NCBI GenBank assembly: GCA_963666285.1
Contig: OY762711.1
DNA from: Sedimentisphaerales bacterium
GTDB taxonomy: Bacteria > Planctomycetota > Phycisphaerae > Sedimentisphaerales > SM23-30
Reading direction: 5' to 3' (one strand)
DNA: 64,000 bases
The notes under the pieces were generated by a model. The model searched no databases, was not told where the DNA came from, and was given only the letters and a program-made list of their open reading frames with translations. Positions 2,728 through 55,973 of the stretch are shown here, piece by piece. Position 1 is the stretch's first letter. Each line of letters begins with the position of its first letter. Both the position numbers and the translations under genes were made by a program.

Positions 2728-4627
2728 ATCGAGTAGGCGGGGGTATTACTACCCCAACCTCTCACACCACCCGGCAAGCCTGCTAAGCACCAAGGCGGTT
2801 CCCTATGGTCTGTTTGCCAGTTCCTGCCATCTTTCCAGCGTACTTACCAATCCTTGTTCTTTAAACCGTTGCAAATTCATAGCTTGATGAGATTGTGGTA
2901 TCGCACTTTTCCTCCAGAGACCCTTGCCGGACAACGCACCTATCCAGGCTTGATACTCATCAACACCATTTCGCCTATAAAATCTTGCTATTGTATAGAC
3001 TCGCTTCAACTGCTTGAGTTTAATCACTCGCAGTTTACGACGAACCCAACAATCCAATCCTTTTAGCTTGTGTTTACACTGAGCATAACGATAATATGTC
3101 GTCCAACCTGTTAAAGTCATGTTGATCCTGGCAATTATCTCTGAATATCTGCCCGGTTTATTACGCCGGGTAAGGCTACGTACCTTATCCTTAAAACGGC
3201 AGATACTCTTCGGGGCTATACCAAGGTTCCCGTCGCCGAAACAGGCGATAGCCAAGGAAGCTTCTTTCACTTACATGGCCAACCGCCGATTTCTCCTTAT
3301 TAACACGAAGTTTAAGTTTAGACTCAAGGAACTTTGTTGCACTTTCAAGTACCCGTTCACCTGCTCTGGTTGACTGTACATATATATTACAGTCATCGGC
3401 ATAGCGAACAAAGCGATGACCTCGTTTTCCAGTTCTCTGTCGAAATCTGTTAACAGAATATTCGCCAGTAGTGGACTTAGCGGACCACCTTGCGGTGTCC
3501 CGTCTTTACGAGGTATTACTACACCATTCTGCATTAAACCTGCATTCAAAAAGGCTCGTATTAGTTTTAACAGTCGTTTATCCTTGATATAACGAGCTAT
3601 TCGAGCCATCAATACATCGTGGTTTACACGATCAAAGAATTTCTCCAGATCCAGGTCAACTACATAAACATAGCCTCCCTTTACGTACTCACTGGCTTGA
3701 TCTATCGCCTGATGAGCACTTCGACCCGGACGAAACCCATAACTGAGTTCGCTGAATTCACGCTCCAGTATGGGGGTAAGCTTCTGTAGAATACCTTGCT
3801 GAACCATACGGTCTATGGCCGTGGGAATACCCAACTGACGTTTTCCACCGCCGGATTTGGGGATTTCCACCCCTCTTACCGGTGATGGAACATATGTACC
3901 GGCCATTAAGGATTCTATCAGTTCATCTATATGCTCGCGGCACCATGCATACATGTCATCAACGGTCATACCATCGATACCTGCTGCCCCGTTGTTAGAT
4001 ACCACTCGCACATACGCTGTTCGCAGATTGTCTTTATCGACTATCTGCTCCATAAGATGGTCGGTCAGGGGTAAGACTTCGGGATTCGCCGGGATGCAAC
4101 TACACGCCTCTAACCCGGTAGATTGAGTTCCGCTCTCTCCACCGCAGCCGAAGTTCAGGTTGTGCTGAGTTGACAGTGGTCTGTTGTCCATCGAGTCTCC
4201 TGTTATTACGTTCCTGTCCATAAGATTCAGTCCTTCGCAAATATTAAAAGGGAATATTTACTACTATGACCTCTGCTGACTTCTGTAAGGCTCCAATGCT
4301 TCTCGGACATTATAGCCTTGAAACAAATGATGTTGATACCCAACATACCTTACAGACCTCCCGGGGTAAGATTTAATACTTCCGGTCGGGCCTCGCCGGA
4401 TTTACCTTTATCGTCTCCGAATGAGTATCGGGCTTCAGAATCCATTGCTTCCTTACCCGGACGACACCGGCCTTATATCCGATTCCTGTTCGTCGAGTCC
4501 GACTTTTGCCTAAGGCTTCCTTACCACCCAGCGTCACCGCTACGCAGTTGCCTTCGACTTGCGGTTCCGCTCATCACGGCCCGCAGGGGACTTTAACCCC
4601 ATGAGCATTAAATCATGCCCGGCGCAC
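2728..4627 (-). mobile_element. group II intron, class C (IIC), 1900 nt
   Basis: 5' end GTGCGCC at 4627. Domain V GAACCGCC...GGTGGTGTGAGAGG lies just after the ORF stop; domain VI ends CCTACTCGAT at 2728. Inserted directly after a terminator hairpin; RT/maturase without endonuclease domain. Confidence 0.92.
2803..4221 (-). pseudogene. ltrA: group II intron reverse transcriptase/maturase with two frameshifts
   Basis: RQLGIP, SYGFRP, DLEKFFD and GTPQGGPLSP motifs. RYADD (YADD at 3392-3403) lies in a shifted frame between indels at ~3425-3428 and ~3239-3241. Confidence 0.88.
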
Positions 4628-10080: not shown

Positions 10081-10143
10081 GCTCAAACAGTTGCTGAAAT
10101 CTAATAATAGAGTATCAATTAAAAAAATCCAGCATAAAACATA

Positions 10144-10306
10144 AGGTGACCTATGGAAATTGCTTTTGATGCGATAGTTTGAAATTTTGGTTGCTGGCAA
10201 GGAACATAAAATCGTGCATATTGAGCTATATTCACGGTTTTATGTGACGCATGTCAGCAGACAAAAGAAAAACTAGTCGCTCAAAATGAATTTCCAGGGG
10301 TTGCCT
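10144..10306 (+). mobile_element. palindromic MITE-like element (163 bp) with TA target duplication
   Basis: Imperfect TIR AGGTGACCTATGGAAATT / AATTTCCAGGGGTTGCCT, TA on both sides, internal long hairpin. Confidence 0.8.
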
Positions 10307-10506
10307 TAAGTTTTCCTAAAAACTAAATTGCATTTTTTACAGCAAATTCAGAATACTATTGTTCTTTTAACTTACCAGCATCATACACTAAAACCGGTAC
10401 CAACACTTCTTTCATGCAAATATACTGGTTACGTTTTTTTTACATAACTATGAAAATAAACAAAGACATTGATTCAAAATAGTGTAAAATGGGAAACGGA
10501 TTAAAA

Positions 10507-11490: not shown

Positions 11491-12402
11491 ATGAAAAAGT
11501 TTTTTTTGATAAATTGGTTATTGTTCGTTGTCTCATTTACTGGCCTTATGACTGGTGGCTGTGCTCGATATGGAATTTTATGTGATAGTAGTCAAATTAA
11601 ATACGCAAAGACAGCTGAGATTTCAGATGATGCCTCCAAAATAGAATCTCTACATATAAATATAGATTCTGGCTCTATTACTGTCCGTGGGTCAGATACG
11701 GATGAATGCCGGTTACTAGCAACGATAAAAGCACTTTCATTTACCAGCAAAGAAGCCAAAGCGTTAGTTGATGGAACTCAAATAAAGATACTGAATTCTG
11801 GGACACAAATGGAAGTTGAAGTCAAAAAGCCGATAATGCAAAAATTTGATCAACTTGAAGTTTCACTTGAAATTTCAATTCCACACGCAATTTCATCTAA
11901 ACTGCATACATCAAGCGGCAATATAATAGTAACCGGCCTGGACGGTTCAGTTGACTGTAGTACTATAACCGGCTCGATTGAGATCAAAAAAGTGCAAGGA
12001 AATGTCACAGCCAATACTAACAGTGGAAATATTAAGCTGGATGACGTTGAATCGCAGCATATGGAACTAAAGGTAAAGACTGGATCGATAAATGGTGAGG
12101 CTTTGGTGGATGAATTGACAGGAGCAGTAATATCAGGAAACATTTCTATGAAATGTATACCGGGATCAAAGGTTAGCGACGTTTCATTATCCGCTAATAC
12201 AGGCTGCATATGGCTAACACTGCCAAAAGATTATTCTGGCAATATAGATGTATCGACAGATCTTGGTCATATCGATTCAGACTTGCCGCAAGTAACAAAA
12301 AATCCTGACCATAAGAAGCTTAGAGGTATTATTGGAAATGGCAACGGAAAGTTAAAAATAAAGACTATTAATGGGGGAATTACTGTTAAGATGCAAAATT
12401 AG
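11491..12402 (+). CDS. DUF4097-like beta-strand repeat lipoprotein
   Basis: Lipobox TGGC; repeated T-x-SG-x-I units. Confidence 0.85.
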   Translation: MKKFFLINWLLFVVSFTGLMTGGCARYGILCDSSQIKYAKTAEISDDASKIESLHINIDSGSITVRGSDTDECRLLATIKALSFTSKEAKALVDGTQIKILNSGTQMEVEVKKPIMQKFDQLEVSLEISIPHAISSKLHTSSGNIIVTGLDGSVDCSTITGSIEIKKVQGNVTANTNSGNIKLDDVESQHMELKVKTGSINGEALVDELTGAVISGNISMKCIPGSKVSDVSLSANTGCIWLTLPKDYSGNIDVSTDLGHIDSDLPQVTKNPDHKKLRGIIGNGNGKLKIKTINGGITVKMQN

Positions 12403-12520
12403 ACTATCTTAACAGTTACCTATGCACTGAACTCACACTTTAAATTTACACTTTACACTTTCAATGCCGCTCCTCTTTTTTTCATCCTTCATCCTTTATA
12501 CTTCATCCTTCAGGTGCAAA

Positions 12521-13596
12521 CAATATTGATATAAACATTACTTACGCGTAAGCTTTAAAATAAGTTGTGAGCCGTTAGGCGAACACCATAATTCTTCACT
12601 CTTCGTTCTTCACTCTTCACTTATTTTTTGGTCTGCCCAACACAAAAAAATAACAACTTACGACAAATTCCACAAAATCCCCTCCCCACCGCAACTCTTC
12701 CCCAAACACGCCTCGCACTCATTCAAACATCCCCGCACTCATTCAAACATCCCCGCACTCTTCAATTTCTATTCGTTTTTTAACCCATCCTTCACCTAAC
12801 TACTCTCACTTATAAATCAATTAGCCTCGGCGAAGCCGACACCTTCACATCATTGGACTTGTCCAATGATGTGCCAGAGTGCGAAGCACGTAGTTAATAT
12901 ACTGGTTGCTGGTCGCTCGTTGCTGTTTAGCTGCTTATCTGCTCTAATCTCTAACGACCTTCGGTCGTTCGCGTAGCCGTTTAAAATAAGCCGTCCGCGA
13001 AGCCGAAACCTCAACTCTTACCTCTTACCTATGTTCGCGTTCCCGTCCGTATAACGCCGCACCCATTCAACGTATCGCCGTATATTGCCCGCGGCCCGCA
13101 ATTCCCCGCCGTTCAAATCCATTTGCCTTTTCACCGCCATCCCACCGCCGCGCCGCCTCGTTACCTTTCCGCACACCTCCCGTTACCCATGTCCTGAACG
13201 AACCAACCTTCCCTGGCATCTGAAACCTGATCCCTGGCCCCTGATTTTCTCGAAAAAATCACCGCGTTTTTACAACCACCAAATCGCGAAAATCAATAAT
13301 TCCCAAAAATTTTATCCCGTTTACTACAAACACCTTACAATTTTTCGGGCCAACCATCCCGCCCAAAAAATCAGCGCACTTTCGACATACCATCCAATAG
13401 CAGAGAGCCGACAAAAAATGAGTACCAGCAAATATCAGCTCTCGCTAAAACTTAACAACGACGAAAACTTCGTCTTAAATATAAACAACGCTCAATAAAA
13501 ACTGAATATTTGTATCACGCCTCGGCAAATCAGAATGATTTGCCCTCTAGAATTGACAATCTCAATTCGTCTCCGCAAGAGCTTGCCTCGCAGCGG
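12521..13596. repeat. large non-coding modular element, copy A
   Basis: Collinear with 54654-55875; identical or near-identical blocks at 12788-12829, 12837-12895 and 13515-13596. Confidence 0.92.
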
Positions 13597-13617
13597 TCTG
13601 GCAGCAGACCCTGCCTG

Positions 13618-14931
13618 CTATTCAGGGTCAGCGTCAACCAGCATAAACCTTATCTGGGCTTCTGCTGCCAGCTGATCTCCTACCATTGCCTTACATTTAC
13701 AGTCACCGGTACGACTCTTAATACGAACAGCTTCAACTTCCAATATAAGCTGATCGCCCGGCACAACTGCCTTTCGCATTTTCACCTTATCCATACTCAA
13801 TAGAACCGCAAGCTGACCGGTATGCTCCAGACGCTGGGCAAACAAAAGACCGGACATCTGTGCCAGGGCCTCTACAATCAAAACTCCCGGCATAATAGGC
13901 GTACCGGGGAAATGGCCCTGGAAAAACGGCTCGTTCATTGTCACATTCTTTATCCCAACCGCACGTTTATCACCTTCGATTGAGATTACCCTGTCAACCA
14001 TCAGAAACGGATAACGATGCGGAAGTATCTTTTGTATCTTCCTGATATCCAATACCGTATCAGATGACGGCGTCTTTTTTTCCTGCTGTCTCTCGGCAAC
14101 ATCAAGCAGCTCACTTACAAGCTTATGATTGGTGCTGTGCCCGCTGCGATACGCCACAATCCTGCCATGAATAGGCCTGCCAAGCAGCATAATATCACCC
14201 AACAGATCTGCAATCTTATGTCGTACACATTCATCCTGGAAACGAAACTCATTATCCATCGGACCTTCCGGGCCAATTACCAGAACATCTTTACCGGTAA
14301 GATGCGAGCCTATCCCTTGTTTACTGAAATGCTCGGCCTCTTTCTGAAGAATAAATGTTCGTGCCGGTGATATCTGGCTGATAAAGTTTTCCTGGGAATG
14401 ATGGTATCGATACAGCTGGCGACCTATTAGCGGCTCACTTTCAGAATAGTCCAGTTCGTAAATAACGGTCAGCTCGTCACTCTTGTCAGGTAATGCATAC
14501 AAAACAGCGTCACCTTCTCTAACCGTAATTGGCTCGGTGATAACGAAAGGCTGCACTTTCTTTACCTGCTCAACAATACCGGCTTCAAGGAAAGCCTCGG
14601 TAAATGGATGACAGCTGCCGTCAATATTAGGCATCTCGACATTATCGATCTCGACTATCAGGTTAGTTATGCCTAACGCATTTACTGCCCCCATAAAATG
14701 TTCGATAGTTTCGATATAAGCATCACCAACACAAAGTGCCGTACGACGCATACGCTGCGTAACCCTATCAATATTCAACGGAATAGATACCGGAGGGTCA
14801 AGGTCAACACGAATAAACTCTATGCCGTGATCTACATCTGCCGGCTTCATCTTAAGAGTAACGTCATTGCCGGAAAATAATCCTCTATCCGCAACAACAG
14901 CCTCTTTTGCAATTGTCTTCTGGTTGTTCAA
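13618..14931 (-). CDS. lpxC: bifunctional UDP-3-O-acyl-GlcNAc deacetylase / 3-hydroxyacyl-ACP dehydratase (LpxC-FabZ)
   Basis: QKTI, TIEH, ARTF and RHKIADLLGD (LpxC); LPHRYPFL and GHFPGTPIMPGVL (FabZ); likely TTG start at 14931. Confidence 0.95.
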   Translation of the reverse strand: MNNQKTIAKEAVVADRGLFSGNDVTLKMKPADVDHGIEFIRVDLDPPVSIPLNIDRVTQRMRRTALCVGDAYIETIEHFMGAVNALGITNLIVEIDNVEMPNIDGSCHPFTEAFLEAGIVEQVKKVQPFVITEPITVREGDAVLYALPDKSDELTVIYELDYSESEPLIGRQLYRYHHSQENFISQISPARTFILQKEAEHFSKQGIGSHLTGKDVLVIGPEGPMDNEFRFQDECVRHKIADLLGDIMLLGRPIHGRIVAYRSGHSTNHKLVSELLDVAERQQEKKTPSSDTVLDIRKIQKILPHRYPFLMVDRVISIEGDKRAVGIKNVTMNEPFFQGHFPGTPIMPGVLIVEALAQMSGLLFAQRLEHTGQLAVLLSMDKVKMRKAVVPGDQLILEVEAVRIKSRTGDCKCKAMVGDQLAAEAQIRFMLVDADPE

Positions 14932-41657: not shown

Positions 41658-41772
41658 GAGTTTACTTTCGTAATTTTTAAGTTTTTCATTCACAAGGCCC
41701 TGTTACGGCCTTTGCGTATAACGTTTAACAGTCAAAAGTGCGACATGCATATGATGCGAAGCATAAACCGCA
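41658..41772 (+). repeat. R1 remnant interrupted by repeat R2
   Basis: R1 left part, then GTTTTTCA...GGCCCTGTTACGGCCTTTGCG (also at 50073-50145), then GCATAAACCGC. Confidence 0.6.
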
Positions 41773-41790
41773 CTGGGAGATAGAAAAGAA

Positions 41791-50440: not shown

Positions 50441-50581
50441 TAAGTTGCAATAATCGCCTAAAAGGGCCCTCCCTACACACTATTTACACAAAAAAGGCCC
50501 GGAGCAAAAGCCCCAGGCCTAATCCTTTAATTACATACATGCCGCAGTATAAGTGCTATACTGCAAAACATTCAACAACCA

Positions 50582-52717
50582 TTAGTTATTATCATCATAG
50601 ATACGATGAGAATCCATCCAGGTTGCTGCAAAGATTGCCAAGTCAGGCAGGTCGATTACGCAGTTGCCATTGTAATCATAAGGTAATGATTCCTGGTCAT
50701 AATCACATACCCAGCCGCCTGCAATATCCATATAATCCTGAGCAACTTCTCCAGTAGTCAAAGCGTAGTTATAGATCTTAACTTCGTCAATCTTGCCATC
50801 GAAATACCTATCAACAGCAAACTGACTCTTGGCAAAATAGTTCAACTCAGGAGCAACATCAACAGGATCAATTGTTGTTTCCTCATTTACACCGGCAAGC
50901 TCGCCATTTGCATATACTTTTGCTGTATCTCCGGCAAGTGTGACGGCAAGATAGGTCCATTCTCCCTGAACAATGGAATATGAAGAGTCAACTATCTGCT
51001 CGTCGCCGCCATTGCGGATTACAAAACGAACTGTATCACTATCGCTTGGTGTCAGGAATACATAATGAGTTTCATCATTGCCAAAGTCCCACACACGCTG
51101 AAACGCAGAGTTACCTGTCCACTTAACCCAGCATGATACTGTCATATCGCCATAATTAACTGCACCGGCAGGAATCTGGCCATATACACCATTGGGATCA
51201 TTTTCAGAAGGATTAACAAAGCTTATACTGCTTGCACCCAGCTCGGCATCTACAACATCAGTATCTAAAACTGGAAGACCAATAGCTGCCTCATCATCAC
51301 TCATCAGAGCCATGTCCCAACCATCAACAGTATCAGGAGTAACTCCTTCACTGACAGATTCGATTGGATAATAGCTGACCAGCCTGGATACCATCGCACG
51401 GCCGGGACCGGTTTCTTCACAAGAAACAGAGCCCAGAAAATTTGATGCAACACAATAAAATACACCTTCATCAGCAGGCTGCATATCAAGAATCGTAAGA
51501 GTATCTGTTGTCACACCGGAATAATCAGCTCCATCTACCAGCGGAGCTGCTTCGCCAACCTTATACCACTGAAAATCAATAACATTGTAAATATTTACAA
51601 GAGTAAACACCAATGGAGAGCCCGGTTCTACAACCGCTATTTCCGGCACAACACTAAACGGAAGAATATTATCATTAATAGTTGTAAAACTGGAAACCGG
51701 GGTAGGAGAAACCACATTGGAATTTGAATCATAACCAATTACTTTCCAATAGTATTTAGTCAGATACTCCAGATCTTCAGTTAATTCGCCTTCCAGGTCA
51801 ATCGTATATTGCTCACCAGAAGTTACTGCCATACCTTCAACAATCTTATAACCTTCCCCACTAGGATCGGTAGATAAGTTAGGGTCTGGAAACGGTGCCA
51901 GCTGAACATCAACTGTAACAATCCTTGGATCCGAAACTGTAAATACCAGATCATTATCTGCTTTATCGGGTTCAACTCCAATATGTTCGGCACCATCAGC
52001 AGGTGAATTATTTTCTACTGTAAGAATCCTGATATTGTCAACTCCTATAAAGTTCCAGGAATCAATCGTCAATTCATACTGGTGTATACGAAGGAAAAGT
52101 TCGCCACTCCCAGCTGATGATAAATCAAACTGCCATACTTCTTCTTGCCCAGGATCACCGGTTGTCAATACAGATGTCTTGGTAACCTGGTCAACCACTG
52201 TTACACCTGACGCTCCAAAAATATCAAGAGCTGCTCCATTTTCCGGGGTAAAAGTACCATCTGATTCCAGAATTGTGAAAGTCAAACCAATTTCCAGTGG
52301 ATCCTCACCCTGGTCTGTTAGGCGAGCCCAATCAAACGCTATTTGGATGACAGTATCTCCAGCTTCCTTTGTGCCGATACTTTGATATGCCCAGTTATTT
52401 TGTAAATCTGTTCCTAAATCACCGGGATCAGGATTCGTATTGATATTATCAGCCTCTCCTGACAATACCAGAACACCACCTTCATTATAAGAGGCTCCGG
52501 CAATCTTTACCCAGGCATTATGCCAACTATATGAATGAATATACCAGCCTACTTTATTCACCTCAAAATCCCAGATATCGGCTGCTACAACAAGACCGTC
52601 TTCGTCATATTCCGTATTAGCCTCAAAATCTCCATTTGTAATCCCAAGCTCAGCTTTTAAAACACCGGCAAAACACATAACAAAACAAAACACAAGTAAC
52701 AAACCAACCTTTTTCAT
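50582..52717 (-). CDS. secreted Ig/LamG protein with dockerin-like C-terminus
   Basis: YYWKV, DEGVFYC, WTYLAVT, DEVKIYNYAL; YDYNGNCVIDLPDLAIFAATW. Confidence 0.85.
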   Translation of the reverse strand: MKKVGLLLVFCFVMCFAGVLKAELGITNGDFEANTEYDEDGLVVAADIWDFEVNKVGWYIHSYSWHNAWVKIAGASYNEGGVLVLSGEADNINTNPDPGDLGTDLQNNWAYQSIGTKEAGDTVIQIAFDWARLTDQGEDPLEIGLTFTILESDGTFTPENGAALDIFGASGVTVVDQVTKTSVLTTGDPGQEEVWQFDLSSAGSGELFLRIHQYELTIDSWNFIGVDNIRILTVENNSPADGAEHIGVEPDKADNDLVFTVSDPRIVTVDVQLAPFPDPNLSTDPSGEGYKIVEGMAVTSGEQYTIDLEGELTEDLEYLTKYYWKVIGYDSNSNVVSPTPVSSFTTINDNILPFSVVPEIAVVEPGSPLVFTLVNIYNVIDFQWYKVGEAAPLVDGADYSGVTTDTLTILDMQPADEGVFYCVASNFLGSVSCEETGPGRAMVSRLVSYYPIESVSEGVTPDTVDGWDMALMSDDEAAIGLPVLDTDVVDAELGASSISFVNPSENDPNGVYGQIPAGAVNYGDMTVSCWVKWTGNSAFQRVWDFGNDETHYVFLTPSDSDTVRFVIRNGGDEQIVDSSYSIVQGEWTYLAVTLAGDTAKVYANGELAGVNEETTIDPVDVAPELNYFAKSQFAVDRYFDGKIDEVKIYNYALTTGEVAQDYMDIAGGWVCDYDQESLPYDYNGNCVIDLPDLAIFAATWMDSHRIYDDNN

Positions 52718-53076
52718 TTTTTATTCCCCTTGATAAAAATACATTTTTACTTCCCTTGACTATCGGGATATACCAATGAACGCATAAAAAATAATACTAC
52801 AGAACAAATTCAAGAAGCCGGACTCAATGCTGTTAAATTTATTATACCACTACAATTCGCTTTAACAACTTGAATTTAACCCTGTTTTCCCACATTTTTA
52901 TATTTCTTTCTGCATTATACACATTCCCAATTTATTACTCACAATCATGCATAAAGCGATCGATATTTTTCAGAAAATTAACCAGAATACAATACATAAT
53001 ATAGACGAATTCCAACTATTATGGATTATTTAAAAAGATGTGGACGAAACTCACTTAATAGCCATAATTAATAGCC

Positions 53077-54429
53077 ATGACAGTAGCCTGCAACCTTAAA
53101 ATAATACTGAATTATACCAGACTCACAATCGGGATTTTGATGCTATTCCTGTCGGCTTTCGCCAACGCTGCTCATTCAAATACAACCGAAAGTATCGAAC
53201 CGGAAACATTAAAAGATCTCATTATCCCTGCTTCCGCTGACCGGGCCAGGCGTTTCGAAGCTGTAGAACTCGCCATCAGCAGCTACCCCGAATCTGCCCC
53301 GGTCTGGATCGCTCAGGCCCTGGTCAACACACCCGATCTGCAAGTTGCCGAACTGCTCCTGCAAAAACTCGAATATCTCTCCTCACCTTCATCGATAAAA
53401 TATCTTGCAATGTATCACCCGCAGAATAAGCAATTAAAAGAGAGAACTATCAAACTTTGCAAAAACATAACGCAAACCGATTACCCCCAATACGCTCTCG
53501 CCATTGTCAACCAGGACCAAAGCAAATCTGACCTGCCCGAATTCCAAATGACCTCCGACATCTGCAAAATATGGGAAAATCTCAACCTCCCACGCAGCGA
53601 TGCCGAAAAATGGCTACACAGCATTACTCCCCAAAATACTATCACCAGAACCATGAAATTCTGCCTCGACCGGTTTAACTGCATCCCTTCAACCTTCATC
53701 GAAATTGTCCAGTTCCGCAAACTCGAAAATATGCCGAAACCTGAGATCCTGACTCTCAAAAACAAGTTTGACATCCTTGCCGACCATGGTTATCTGTTTT
53801 CCATTGGCGACCTGGGCCTGTTGCAAAACCTGCCAATAGAAACAATTAAAACCTCTCGAGAAAACCTGGAAAGCGTCATCTCCCCATACCTCCAAAACGC
53901 CAAACATATCAGCCGCCCCCCCGCATACAGAAACGCTGCCAACGACAAACCTGACGATTTCGCCGGCCAAAAAGATTCACTTACTATCACCGACCTGCTC
54001 CGGCTTAAACTCATCATCAATTATATATCACAAAACAACCAAAAAGACATCAACTCATCCCTCACCCAGCCAACCGACAAAAGCGAGATCGGCGGACTCA
54101 TACACCTCAAAAATGACAGCCTGGTTTTCCAGTATTACACCCCCGGCAAATCCATCGGCCATCATCGCTATATAGAATCACAACAGTTATTAAGCGATGC
54201 CCCCAACGCCATCGCACGCTGGCATATACACGACCAGCGAAACACCTCACGCAACCTTGCAGGCCCAGGCATAGACGACATCAAATACGCCCAAAACCTC
54301 AACTCCGCCATCGTCATAATTACCTTGCTCCAGGACACCGCCACCGGCATAACTGCAAACTTCGACTATGTCAACTCGTCAGGCACCACCATCGACATCA
54401 CAGTTACCAATATTGTAAACTTACATTAA
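53077..54429 (+). CDS. exported protein with C-terminal JAB/MPN-like motif
   Basis: Signal peptide; EIGG...WHIH...AGPGIDD. Confidence 0.65.
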   Translation: MTVACNLKIILNYTRLTIGILMLFLSAFANAAHSNTTESIEPETLKDLIIPASADRARRFEAVELAISSYPESAPVWIAQALVNTPDLQVAELLLQKLEYLSSPSSIKYLAMYHPQNKQLKERTIKLCKNITQTDYPQYALAIVNQDQSKSDLPEFQMTSDICKIWENLNLPRSDAEKWLHSITPQNTITRTMKFCLDRFNCIPSTFIEIVQFRKLENMPKPEILTLKNKFDILADHGYLFSIGDLGLLQNLPIETIKTSRENLESVISPYLQNAKHISRPPAYRNAANDKPDDFAGQKDSLTITDLLRLKLIINYISQNNQKDINSSLTQPTDKSEIGGLIHLKNDSLVFQYYTPGKSIGHHRYIESQQLLSDAPNAIARWHIHDQRNTSRNLAGPGIDDIKYAQNLNSAIVIITLLQDTATGITANFDYVNSSGTTIDITVTNIVNLH

Positions 54430-54503
54430 GTTTACTTTCGCAGTTTTTAAGTTGCAATAACGAAGTGCCTCTGGTAAATCGCCTAAAAGGGCCTTCTTGC
54501 AAC
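54428..54503 (+). repeat. dispersed repeat R1, copy carrying a short internal insertion
   Basis: AAGTTTACTTTCGCAGTTTTTAAGTTGCAATAA[insert]TCGCCTAAAAGGGCC. Confidence 0.8.
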
Positions 54504-54653
54504 ACTTTGAATTTAAACAAAACGTGAGCGACAGCGAATTATTCCTGATGTCAACGTACATCAGGACACCTCAATTCTTCACTTCATTTTTCATTTTGCG
54601 TAGCTCGCCGCAACTCTAAATTTTGGTTCATTTCAGACTTCAAACAGATACTG

Positions 54654-55875
54654 CAATTTTGATATAAATTTTACTTTCGCGTCAGCTTTAAAATTAGTTG
54701 TGAGCCGTTAGGCGAACACCGGAATTTTTCACTTTTAATTTTTCATTTTTCATTTTGCGTAGCTCGCCGCTCCGTGGCATCTGGTCTGCCCACAATCCAA
54801 AAATAACAACTTACGATAATATCCGCAAAATTCCCTCCCCGCCGCACTACCTCTGCAACCCGCCTCGCACTCATTCTTATATCCCCGCACCCTTCAATTC
54901 CATTCCGTTTTTTAACCTCTCCTTCACCTAACTACTCTCACTTATAAATCAATTAGCCTCGCCGAACCCGGTTAAAATAGGTCGCGTAGCGACACCTTCA
55001 CTCCTGGGAACGCTGAGTACAAGCTCGGCACATTATTTAACCAGGTCGCGTAGCGACACCTTCACATCATTGGACTTGTCCAATGATGTGCCAGAGTGCG
55101 AAGCACGTAGTTTATCTGCTGACAGCTGACCACTGGCCGCTGGTCACTCGCTGCTGATTACCTGTTCTACTATCATCTGTTCTAATTTTAAACAAGCCGT
55201 GAGCGACAGCGAATTATTCCTGATGTCAATGTACATCAGGACACCTTAATTTTTCATTTTTAATTATTCATTTTTCATTTAGCGTAGCTCGTCGCGTCTC
55301 CGCTCCGTCCCCGTGTTTGGGCTTCCGTACCTGTTTGATGTTCCGCCGTATATTGTCCGCGGCCCGCAATTCCCCTTCGTTCAAATCCGTTACCCTTTTC
55401 ACCGCCGGCCACCCGCCGCGCTGCCCCGTTACCTTTCCGCACACCTCCCGTCAACCATCAATTAGCCGCGAGCGGTAGCGAGCAACCTTCCATGGCATCT
55501 GAAACCTGATTCCTGACCACTGATTTTCTCGAAAAAATCACCGCGTTTTTACAACCACCAAAACGCGAAAATCTAAAGTCTTCAATTTTTTTATCCCGTT
55601 TACTACAAACACCTTACAAACTTCCAAACCAACCAGCCCGCCCAAAAAATCAGCGCACTTTTGACATACCGTCCAATTGTAGAGAGCCAACAAAAAATGA
55701 TTACCAGCATAAATCAGCTCTCTACAAAACATAACAACGACGAAAACTTCGTCTTTAATATAAACAACGCTCAATAAAAACCGAATATTTCCTTCACGCC
55801 TCGGCAAATCAGAATGATTTGCCCTCTAGAATTGACAATCTCAATTCGTCTCCGCAAGAGCTCGCCTCGCAGCGG
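54654..55875. repeat. large non-coding modular element, copy B
   Basis: Collinear with 12521-13596, with extra modules; an additional module copy lies at 54512-54611. Confidence 0.92.
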
Positions 55876-55973
55876 CCTGTTCCAAGCTTTGCTTGGTCTC
55901 CGCGCAGCATTCCAGGCAAGGCTTTACTTAGCCTTGCCTAATACCTTTCAAACTGTCCATCAAACAGTTTGAG

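Follow-up and report, generated by a model that had tools for sequence, protein, structure and literature searches.

Two related non-coding elements in the window (the whole 64,000-nt stretch analyzed here, C1:3872001–3936000 of the Sedimentisphaerales bacterium genome G000) belong to a repeat family that is spread through the chromosome and whose copies are patchworks of one another. We consider it somewhat better than an even bet, with a probability of roughly 0.55, that the element is a mosaic repeat system resembling BIMEs and NIMEs, which spreads and is reshuffled by short-tract recombination anchored in its modules. An earlier note on this DNA had counted two copies, here called A and B. 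The genome (6.35 Mb, 97% complete, with 6.15 Mb in its largest contig, C1) contains 30 full-length cores among 35 core matches, far above chance, and the scaffold with exchangeable modules described in that note is borne out across the family.

The element in the window

Copy A (12521–13596) aligns with copy B (54654–55875), and the contents of the slots differ between the two. The shared blocks were confirmed as described: 12788–12829 and 54920–54961 are identical (0/42 mismatches), as are 12837–12895 and 55054–55112 (0/59), with identity stopping at the block ends in both cases, and 13515–13596 differs from 55794–55875 at one of 82 positions, with no further extension. A 20-bp tandem duplication (12714–12760, plus strand) is also present as reported and is private to copy A. 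The two copies were placed correctly overall but start further left than proposed, copy A near 12440 rather than 12521 and the arm of copy B near 54517. The left border of copy B abuts a second short repeat family (window positions 41663–41782 and 54408–54516), which has about 96–100 matches in the genome.

Copy A is located between a DUF4097 gene and lpxC–fabZ, and copy B between an uncharacterized gene and a response regulator. A position just downstream of a minus-strand gene was suggested for the element; this is correct for copies A and B but not for the family, where the 30 copies divide 18 to 12 and no gene-orientation rule is apparent. The proposed lack of a credible ORF was upheld: a 137-aa frame at 13085–13498 has no Pfam match, 1–2-bp indels are present, and the longest stop-free frame in each of the 30 cores extends over 67–157 codons. 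Similarly, no TIR or TSD was found at 30 end pairs, where the ends are ragged and the only direct repeats are of 4–7 nt, as expected by chance; for this comparison, the positions of left ends were approximated from k-mer depth and TIRs were judged by eye. Searches against Rfam at gathering and E-value thresholds gave nothing credible over the element, and no IS match was obtained, so that neither a known family nor a set of just two copies describes what is found. The only Rfam matches in the window are pieces of a group II intron, away from the element. This intron (3271–4543, minus strand; pieces D1–D4) is single-copy, has its RT domain split over two frames and does not lie at a module.

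Anatomy of the arm, core and extension

Each full copy measures 1–1.3 kb and consists of a modular arm, a core and, in some copies, an extension. On the G-poor strand, the arm begins with a heptamer array, a TTTAAAA–hairpin–ACACC slot, a second heptamer array and a second hairpin, and continues with a TGGTCYGCCC hub, an AAAATAA(N4)TTAC box, a C-rich tract, a 28-bp palindrome and further slots before reaching the core. The arm of copy A (12440–13037) has its heptamer arrays, mini-hairpins, hub, box and palindrome in this fixed order. Its first hairpin slot (12565–12587) carries a GTTA loop allele, where other copies have GAA, GTA, GTAA, GTAC or a 38-nt allele; the slot hairpins are interchangeable, and compensated variants are present. 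The hub (12629–12638, plus strand) is followed by the box (12647–12661, plus strand) and by the perfect 28-bp palindrome (12846–12873), variants of which, including a compensated ATAT-centered form, occur elsewhere. In copy B the arm (54517–55305) contains two 38-nt hairpin slots and heptamer arrays, with the hub at 54781–54791, the box at 54800–54814 and the palindrome at 55063–55090.

The core (13038–13509 in copy A, 55306–55788 in copy B) is ∼485 bp long, poor in G on the plus strand (13%), poor in indels and mosaic. It terminates near AATAT, and its end motif (13490–13509 in copy A, plus strand) is boxA-like in some copies but degenerate in both copies of the window; the rRNA leader of G000 has the boxA GTTCTTTGACAATTAAA, which the core end matches in a few copies. 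Stand-alone boxA-like motifs were also seen outside the modules, at C1:3246261, 6033477 and 6150241. The right extension, with its hairpins (13510–13596 in copy A, 55789–55902 in copy B), is optional: roughly one copy in three has it, and its cut-off point varies. Overall, left ends are ragged and the core end is fairly sharp.

Three kinds of motif were counted in the modules. (i) Loops of the form C[GNA]G or C[GNNA]G, on either strand, close 142 of 290 module hairpins (stems of at least 5 pairs), compared with 19/684 in other intergenic DNA and about 3/108 in shuffled sequence. (ii) The box has 27 of its 74 matches in modules where 1 is expected. It resembles an IHF site and is a putative binding site; the canonical IHF consensus is not enriched in modules (6 versus 6 expected). 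(iii) The hub has 55 of its 108 genomic matches in modules and exceeds its control in G000 by 69 to 21; most relatives lack a clear enrichment. The hub is followed by several different long tract families, at least two of them in addition to that of the element, and one of these shows weak similarity to the core profile (E = 1e-6). Two families besides that of the window begin with this hairpin and hub, at C1:248, 1125, 1130, 1250 and 1255 kb and at 407, 5267, 5271 and 5399 kb; the copies at 1250 and 1255 kb are inverted and lie 5 kb apart. As for the loops, GCGNAGC and GCGNNAGC are described in PMC13037366 as extraordinarily stable mini-hairpins when made of DNA and much weaker ones when made of RNA.

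Family size and distribution

With the core of copy A (13038–13509) as query, 35 match clusters were obtained, of which the 30 full-length ones were analyzed and the five partial or split ones were excluded from all statistics; a core profile search gave 36 matches. The modules are far more numerous. With 24 of the 30 arms as queries, 467 loci were identified that total 82 kb, or 1.3% of the chromosome, all of them on C1 and none on the three 65-kb contigs of G000. The copies are dispersed among neighboring genes in either orientation, without significant replichore bias (217/467, p = 0.14; 83/192, p = 0.07; 20/52, p = 0.13) and without a relation between identity and the distance separating copies (Mantel p = 0.27).

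The cores are mosaics

The 30 cores have a mean pairwise identity of 83% (range 71–92%), and the most similar pair reaches 91.5%. Among 483 alignment columns, 191 are invariant, 79 vary in a single copy only and 172 are biallelic with both states shared among copies. Linkage between core sites is lost over very short distances: across all columns, r2 falls from 0.54 to background by 80 bp and, when an 81-column block that reflects a module swap is left out, from 0.34 at 1–3 bp to 0.04 at 21–40 bp (background 0.033). None of 300 permutations reaches either trend. A copy-path count gives 8.4 switches, a figure without a null control. The same decay is seen in G018 (32 loci) and in G010 (27 loci, partly by block swap in this genome). 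IS copies in the same assembly are 98.5–100% identical, and the mosaic pattern is therefore specific to this repeat family.

Forward simulations of conversion among 30 copies reproduce the linkage with tracts of 40–100 bp, for which r2 values of 0.24–0.33, 0.12–0.19 and 0.08–0.11 were obtained, whereas tracts of at most 40 bp agree better with the range of identities and with a longest identical run of 83 bp. Duplication of whole copies was rejected, as it yields a flat r2 of ∼0.55 and identical pairs, unlike the data. These simulations are crude, with 3–6 replicates and uniform mutation. Two observations exceed the neutral model: singleton columns (0.18 versus 0.09–0.13) and the clustering of invariant sites (0.43 versus 0.15–0.21, maximum 0.33). 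To explain them, one must invoke selection, a slowing of exchange or conversion that depends on identity. As for the suggestion that the scaffold is constrained, much of the alternation of scaffold and slots can arise from recombination between copies instead of selection, yet the invariant columns cluster beyond what neutral conversion produces.

Captured flanks and insertion sequences

The 3′ part of the DUF4097 gene next to copy A (gene 11491–12402), together with 72 bp downstream of it, has been copied from 11929–12474 (plus strand) to C1:1255.3–1256.1 kb. The copied piece is 5′-truncated, 545 bp long and adjacent to another module array, its junction falling within a module, and a later MITE insertion interrupts it. 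Per 40-nt bin, identity is 92–100% up to 12474 and 57–80% in the adjoining array, where the order of modules is the same; both versions of the flank occur in short-read unitigs. Either the flank was copied via a module anchor or the array has been overwritten far faster than the flank has mutated, and both accounts require recombination at modules. A MITE of ∼165–200 bp is also present in the window at 10127–10328; it has about 60 copies, and a related copy is the one that interrupts the DUF4097 fragment, at C1:1255.5 kb.

Three other copies have an RHS-core-like flank in common (86–100% identity), which may be a cassette rather than a capture. Captured flanks are found in both senses. Among low-copy duplicate pairs more generally, 41/135 have an end no more than 60 bp from a module, where 8% would be expected by chance; IS insertions and sister subfamilies are part of this count. 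A tRNA-Arg-like gene, recognized by eye, is duplicated together with ∼110 bp of upstream DNA (C1:2548295–2548458 and 2695018–2695182), and one of the two adjoins an element end. We did not accept this as flank capture: the partner locus lacks a module and the duplication may derive from an integrative element.

Some insertion sequences are concentrated at the modules. Copies of IS3a (6/9), IS110a (7/9) and a third IS110 (3/3) lie within 44 bp of a module, in contrast to another IS110 (1/4) and to four other IS (0/13 copies); for RT-bearing group II introns the count is 1/2. REPs are known targets of IS3- and IS110-family elements (PMC1525189).

Related genomes and the AAAATAA(N4)TTAC box

Core DNA was not found in 60 relatives, the sole weak match (E = 7e-4) being spurious and in a coding region. 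The core was likewise not found in the near-complete congeners G001 and G003, where the box occurs 0–1 times. The exact core hairpin motif has no match in genome, viral or metagenome contigs, collections that possibly do not include near relatives, and neither the 28-bp palindrome nor the tandem box has a match in viral contigs. Short motifs of the arm match 7 of 24 family genomes.

The box is the sole feature clearly common to the element and to analogous families of related genomes. Its counts among 25 family genomes are burst-like, with 16–180 occurrences in six, 7 in one and 0–2 in 18 (0–1 for reversed-pattern controls), and it is amplified in five related genomes besides G000, namely G010, G012, G018, G020 and G022; G001, G003, G009, G014, G015 and G017 are among the box-poor ones. 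Four of the box-rich relatives (G010, G022, G018 and G020) have their own multi-copy, G-poor and gene-free elements that end in tandem boxes 32–33 bp apart, and those of G010, G018 and G020 show 11-bp phasing of A-tracts, which the G000 core does not. Core and hub profiles of G000 and the families of G010, G018 and G020 do not match in either direction. As the profiles of the related-genome families match each other around the boxes but do not match the G000 core, we rate these families as probable analogues with a common motif, and homology with the G000 core is unsupported by the sequences. In a species-level genome collection the tandem-box pattern occurs in 87 stretches; among the matches listed, 79 of 80 come from seven Planctomycetota records. 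In the box-poor genome G017, the single box lies close to one end of a small element bounded by terminal inverted repeats, which hints that the box may be a site for a host factor.

At the lpxC–fabZ site, three congeners each have different neighbors, and the genomes compared provided no empty-site allele or pair of strains that would show the birth of a copy. Downstream of lpxC–fabZ, a different neighbor was seen in each of four congeneric genomes, and two other genera continue, as judged by eye, into an lpxA-like gene. An inversion joining copies A and B via a G003 kinase was considered and dropped, the kinase of the window not being its best match.

Helper genes and host repair

The helper search recommended earlier covered a few chosen gene families. 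None of the four-helix-bundle, Y1/RAYT, RT, GxxExxY, Y2, RecT and GIY-YIG families tracks the element or the box bursts, and apart from IS genes no ORF recurs beside the copies in six genomes. G000 has five PF01797 (RAYT) matches, none flanked by modules in the flanks examined, and some 7 kb around a RAYT-like gene are free of modules. Y2 transposase (PF04986) was found in one of five genomes (G020) and is absent from G000, G010 and G018. A small GIY-YIG gene (∼95 aa) is 15 kb from the nearest module; the hairpin behind it resembles a type that occurs in modules in 11 of 17 instances, but GIY-YIG genes are commoner in G001 and G003, neither of which has a box burst. RT genes are present in five of the six box-rich genomes and in 8 of the 19 others. 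RecT was not found. GxxExxY (PF13366) has no gene in G000 and is present in 20 of 24 family relatives, and four-helix-bundle genes at C1:8296 and 5096210 have these heptamer and hairpin modules on their flanks. For Planctomycetes, PMC6006769 reports Y1 proteins of class 3 with atypical hairpins, and these are still a helper candidate.

Loss of mismatch repair was rejected as a cause, as the mutS and mutL genes of G000 are intact. MutS and MutL should hinder RecA-dependent exchange at 17% divergence. A comEC gene is present.

Comparison with known systems

Cyanobacteria have SDR elements in heptamer (STRR) arrays (Elhai et al. 2008). SDRs are tiny hairpins nested in 7-nt tandem repeats, with compensatory changes, and the modules of G000 are built alike; SDRs measure 21–27 nt, however, and are not known to include a long core or a box or to capture flanks. 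Rolling-circle elements of the IS91/ISCR type have one fixed and one variable end, capture flanks and leave no TSD. In the G000 element the core end is fairly sharp, although with optional extensions, and one clear capture occurred at the other end; Y2 transposase and near-identical copies are lacking. A MITE or other non-autonomous IS would be expected to show what is missing here, namely TIRs with a TSD and near-identical recent copies (the maximum being 91.5% identity). Large structured ncRNAs of the GOLLD, ROOL, OLE and HEARO type differ in that the element has no Rfam match and its core no long-range pairing backed by covariation, and integron attC sites lie between co-oriented gene cassettes of an array, unlike these dispersed copies with neighbors in either orientation.

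The closest parallels are found in REP/BIME and NIME systems. E. coli BIMEs are also intergenic mosaics of hairpins and linkers with hundreds of copies and chimeric forms, are also targets of IS3 and IS110 elements, and capture of flanking gene fragments has been proposed for them (PMC3333891, PMC1525189). The G000 element differs from them in the absence of a GTAG or CGTC foot (0/247 GNA/GNNA hairpins) and of a RAYT gene beside the repeats, in units that are co-oriented instead of head-to-head, in its heptamer arrays and hairpin-poor ∼485-bp core, and in its larger size. The NIMEs of Neisseria (dRS3 plus RS) likewise combine short palindromes with many families of spacers in arrays that are dynamic; these arrays have been proposed to favor recombination of neighboring DNA and to admit IS and phage (PMC1797815), and they have been linked with the Ssn/NTS system (PMC11893778). 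In G000 several tract families follow one hairpin and hub, but many types of hairpin occur where NIMEs have one dRS3, the modules keep a collinear order over 1 kb and no Ssn-like gene is clearly flanked by repeats. Having no GTAG foot, no linked RAYT gene and no clearly linked Ssn gene, the element belongs to neither group. Streptococcus BOX repeats (67–637 bp) are similarly modular and intergenic but are regarded as non-autonomous units moved by an IS (PMC3184786); the G000 family shows no duplication of units and a far richer set of modules. Comparable intergenic repeats are listed in PMC3184786 and PMC3372372. In the literature searched, mostly open-access papers without their supplements, we found neither an account of such elements in Phycisphaerae nor an earlier description of a long ∼485-bp core combined with patchwork structure and flank capture.

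Models for spread and reshuffling

In the recombination model that we prefer, copies would swap short patches, tens to ∼100 bp in length, by non-reciprocal DNA recombination, with exchange starting in identical blocks or at single-stranded mini-hairpins. A new long copy could form when a locus that already contains a short module takes up the remainder from another copy, the uptake being anchored by the module at one end and completed by an imprecise joint at the other. An anchor and an imprecise joint of this kind would also explain the captured gene fragments. The engine might be host recombination, within the genome or with sibling DNA (a comEC gene is present), or a hairpin-nicking enzyme. 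No benefit to the host would be necessary, and the element could be selfish or neutral DNA that serves as an insertion haven and a substrate for rearrangement. Three points fall outside this model: why the strands are asymmetric, why the core ends fairly sharply and why other genera amplified unrelated cores with the same box.

Its main rival is a dedicated single-strand enzyme. Here the copies would be non-autonomous single-strand elements (HUH, rolling-circle or Ssn-like), moved in trans by an enzyme that recognizes the mini-hairpins or the box, and would be mosaic from birth or become so later. Although unlikely on balance, this would account for one fairly sharp and one ragged end without TSD, for flank capture, for DNA mini-hairpins with compensatory variants and for the burst-like distribution of the box, and TnpA-REP is reported to recombine ssBIMEs and may sequester flanking genes (PMC3333891). 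It is at odds with the absence of young identical copies, of a GTAG or CGTC foot and of replichore bias, and with the helper results: the RAYT-like and GIY-YIG genes lie far from any module, Y2 transposase is missing from three box-rich genomes and no ORF recurs beside the copies. These points also bear on the non-autonomous element proposed in the earlier note, which holds in part, given that no pair exceeds 92% identity, that whole-copy duplication fails in simulation and that no helper gene tracks the element. As a still more tentative and rather doubtful extension, the families could form an undescribed Sedimentisphaerales class of gene-free, strand-asymmetric elements with box and mini-hairpins, distinct from REP/RAYT, IS and retroelements and amplified by a dedicated enzyme that patch-copies several templates, so that copies are born mosaic and can carry fragments of host genes. 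If a dedicated enzyme does drive the arrays, it would represent a new ssDNA-processing activity.

The other alternatives we regard as improbable to various degrees. The element could be RNA-based, either a family of long ncRNA genes or a transcript that a group II intron RT returned to DNA while switching templates, and the pronounced strand asymmetry (13% G on one strand), the boxA-like end of some copies and the RT genes of the box-rich genomes fit this idea. The G-poor strand of copy A folds better than shuffled sequences (z = −3.0); the other strand does not (z = −0.8), and above-chance folding is confined to the G-poor strand and to local hairpins. In a consensus fold of the 30 cores, a test that covered the core alone, compensatory changes affect 4/68 and 1/33 pairs, each in a single sequence. 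Promoter and terminator matches over the element are at chance level, the stable loops occur on either strand and are of a kind far stabler as DNA (PMC13037366), RT genes are also found in other genomes, and flanks are captured in both senses. A structured ncRNA is thus not supported, and the earlier reading as a large ncRNA fails on the lack of covariation in the core, on hairpin loops that occur on either strand and on the absence of orientation bias. We give equally little credence to selected chromosome-organizing sites (nucleoid-protein binding, bent DNA) with mosaicism as a by-product: the enrichment of the box in modules, the tandem boxes and A-tract phasing of G010, G018 and G020 and the excess clustering of invariant columns agree with such a role, but in the near-complete congeners G001 and G003 the core was not found and the box occurs at most once, the G000 core lacks the phasing, the IHF consensus is at expectation and the three 65-kb contigs have no modules. 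Moreover, only one HU/IHF gene was found in G000 and none in G018 (93% complete). Finally, it is very improbable that the pattern is an artefact of assembly or polishing. The genome is metagenome-assembled and no listed unitig spans the whole element, but copy-specific stretches of copy A (12507–12817, 13019–13135 and 13554–14200) match short-read unitigs with 0 differences and at single-copy depth in one sample, possibly the source of the assembly; IS copies in this assembly are nearly identical, and two other assemblies show the same decay of linkage. In a second sample, one unitig has differences at four listed arm-start sites (two family-majority and two rare alleles); it was set aside, as it may stem from the duplicate locus.

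How long bacterial mosaic repeats such as BIMEs, NIMEs, BOX and heptamer arrays originate and spread can be put to the test here, with 30 collinear copies in a near-complete chromosome and parallel families in sister genera. The family is a clean example from nature of dispersed repeats that exchange DNA at 17% divergence, in a genome with mutS and mutL genes and on a tract scale that can be measured. For the host, the arrays occupy 1.3% of the chromosome, steer the insertion of IS3 and IS110 elements and move gene fragments; in draft genomes they are often at contig ends.

Other duplications in the genome

Two duplications were also noted. A laminin-G/Ig protein gene region of the window (50491–52729) is repeated at C1:3995843–3998048 with 86–97% identity, and an inverted duplication of ∼30 kb relates C1:966869–998572 to 2111384–2142580 with 88–94% identity.
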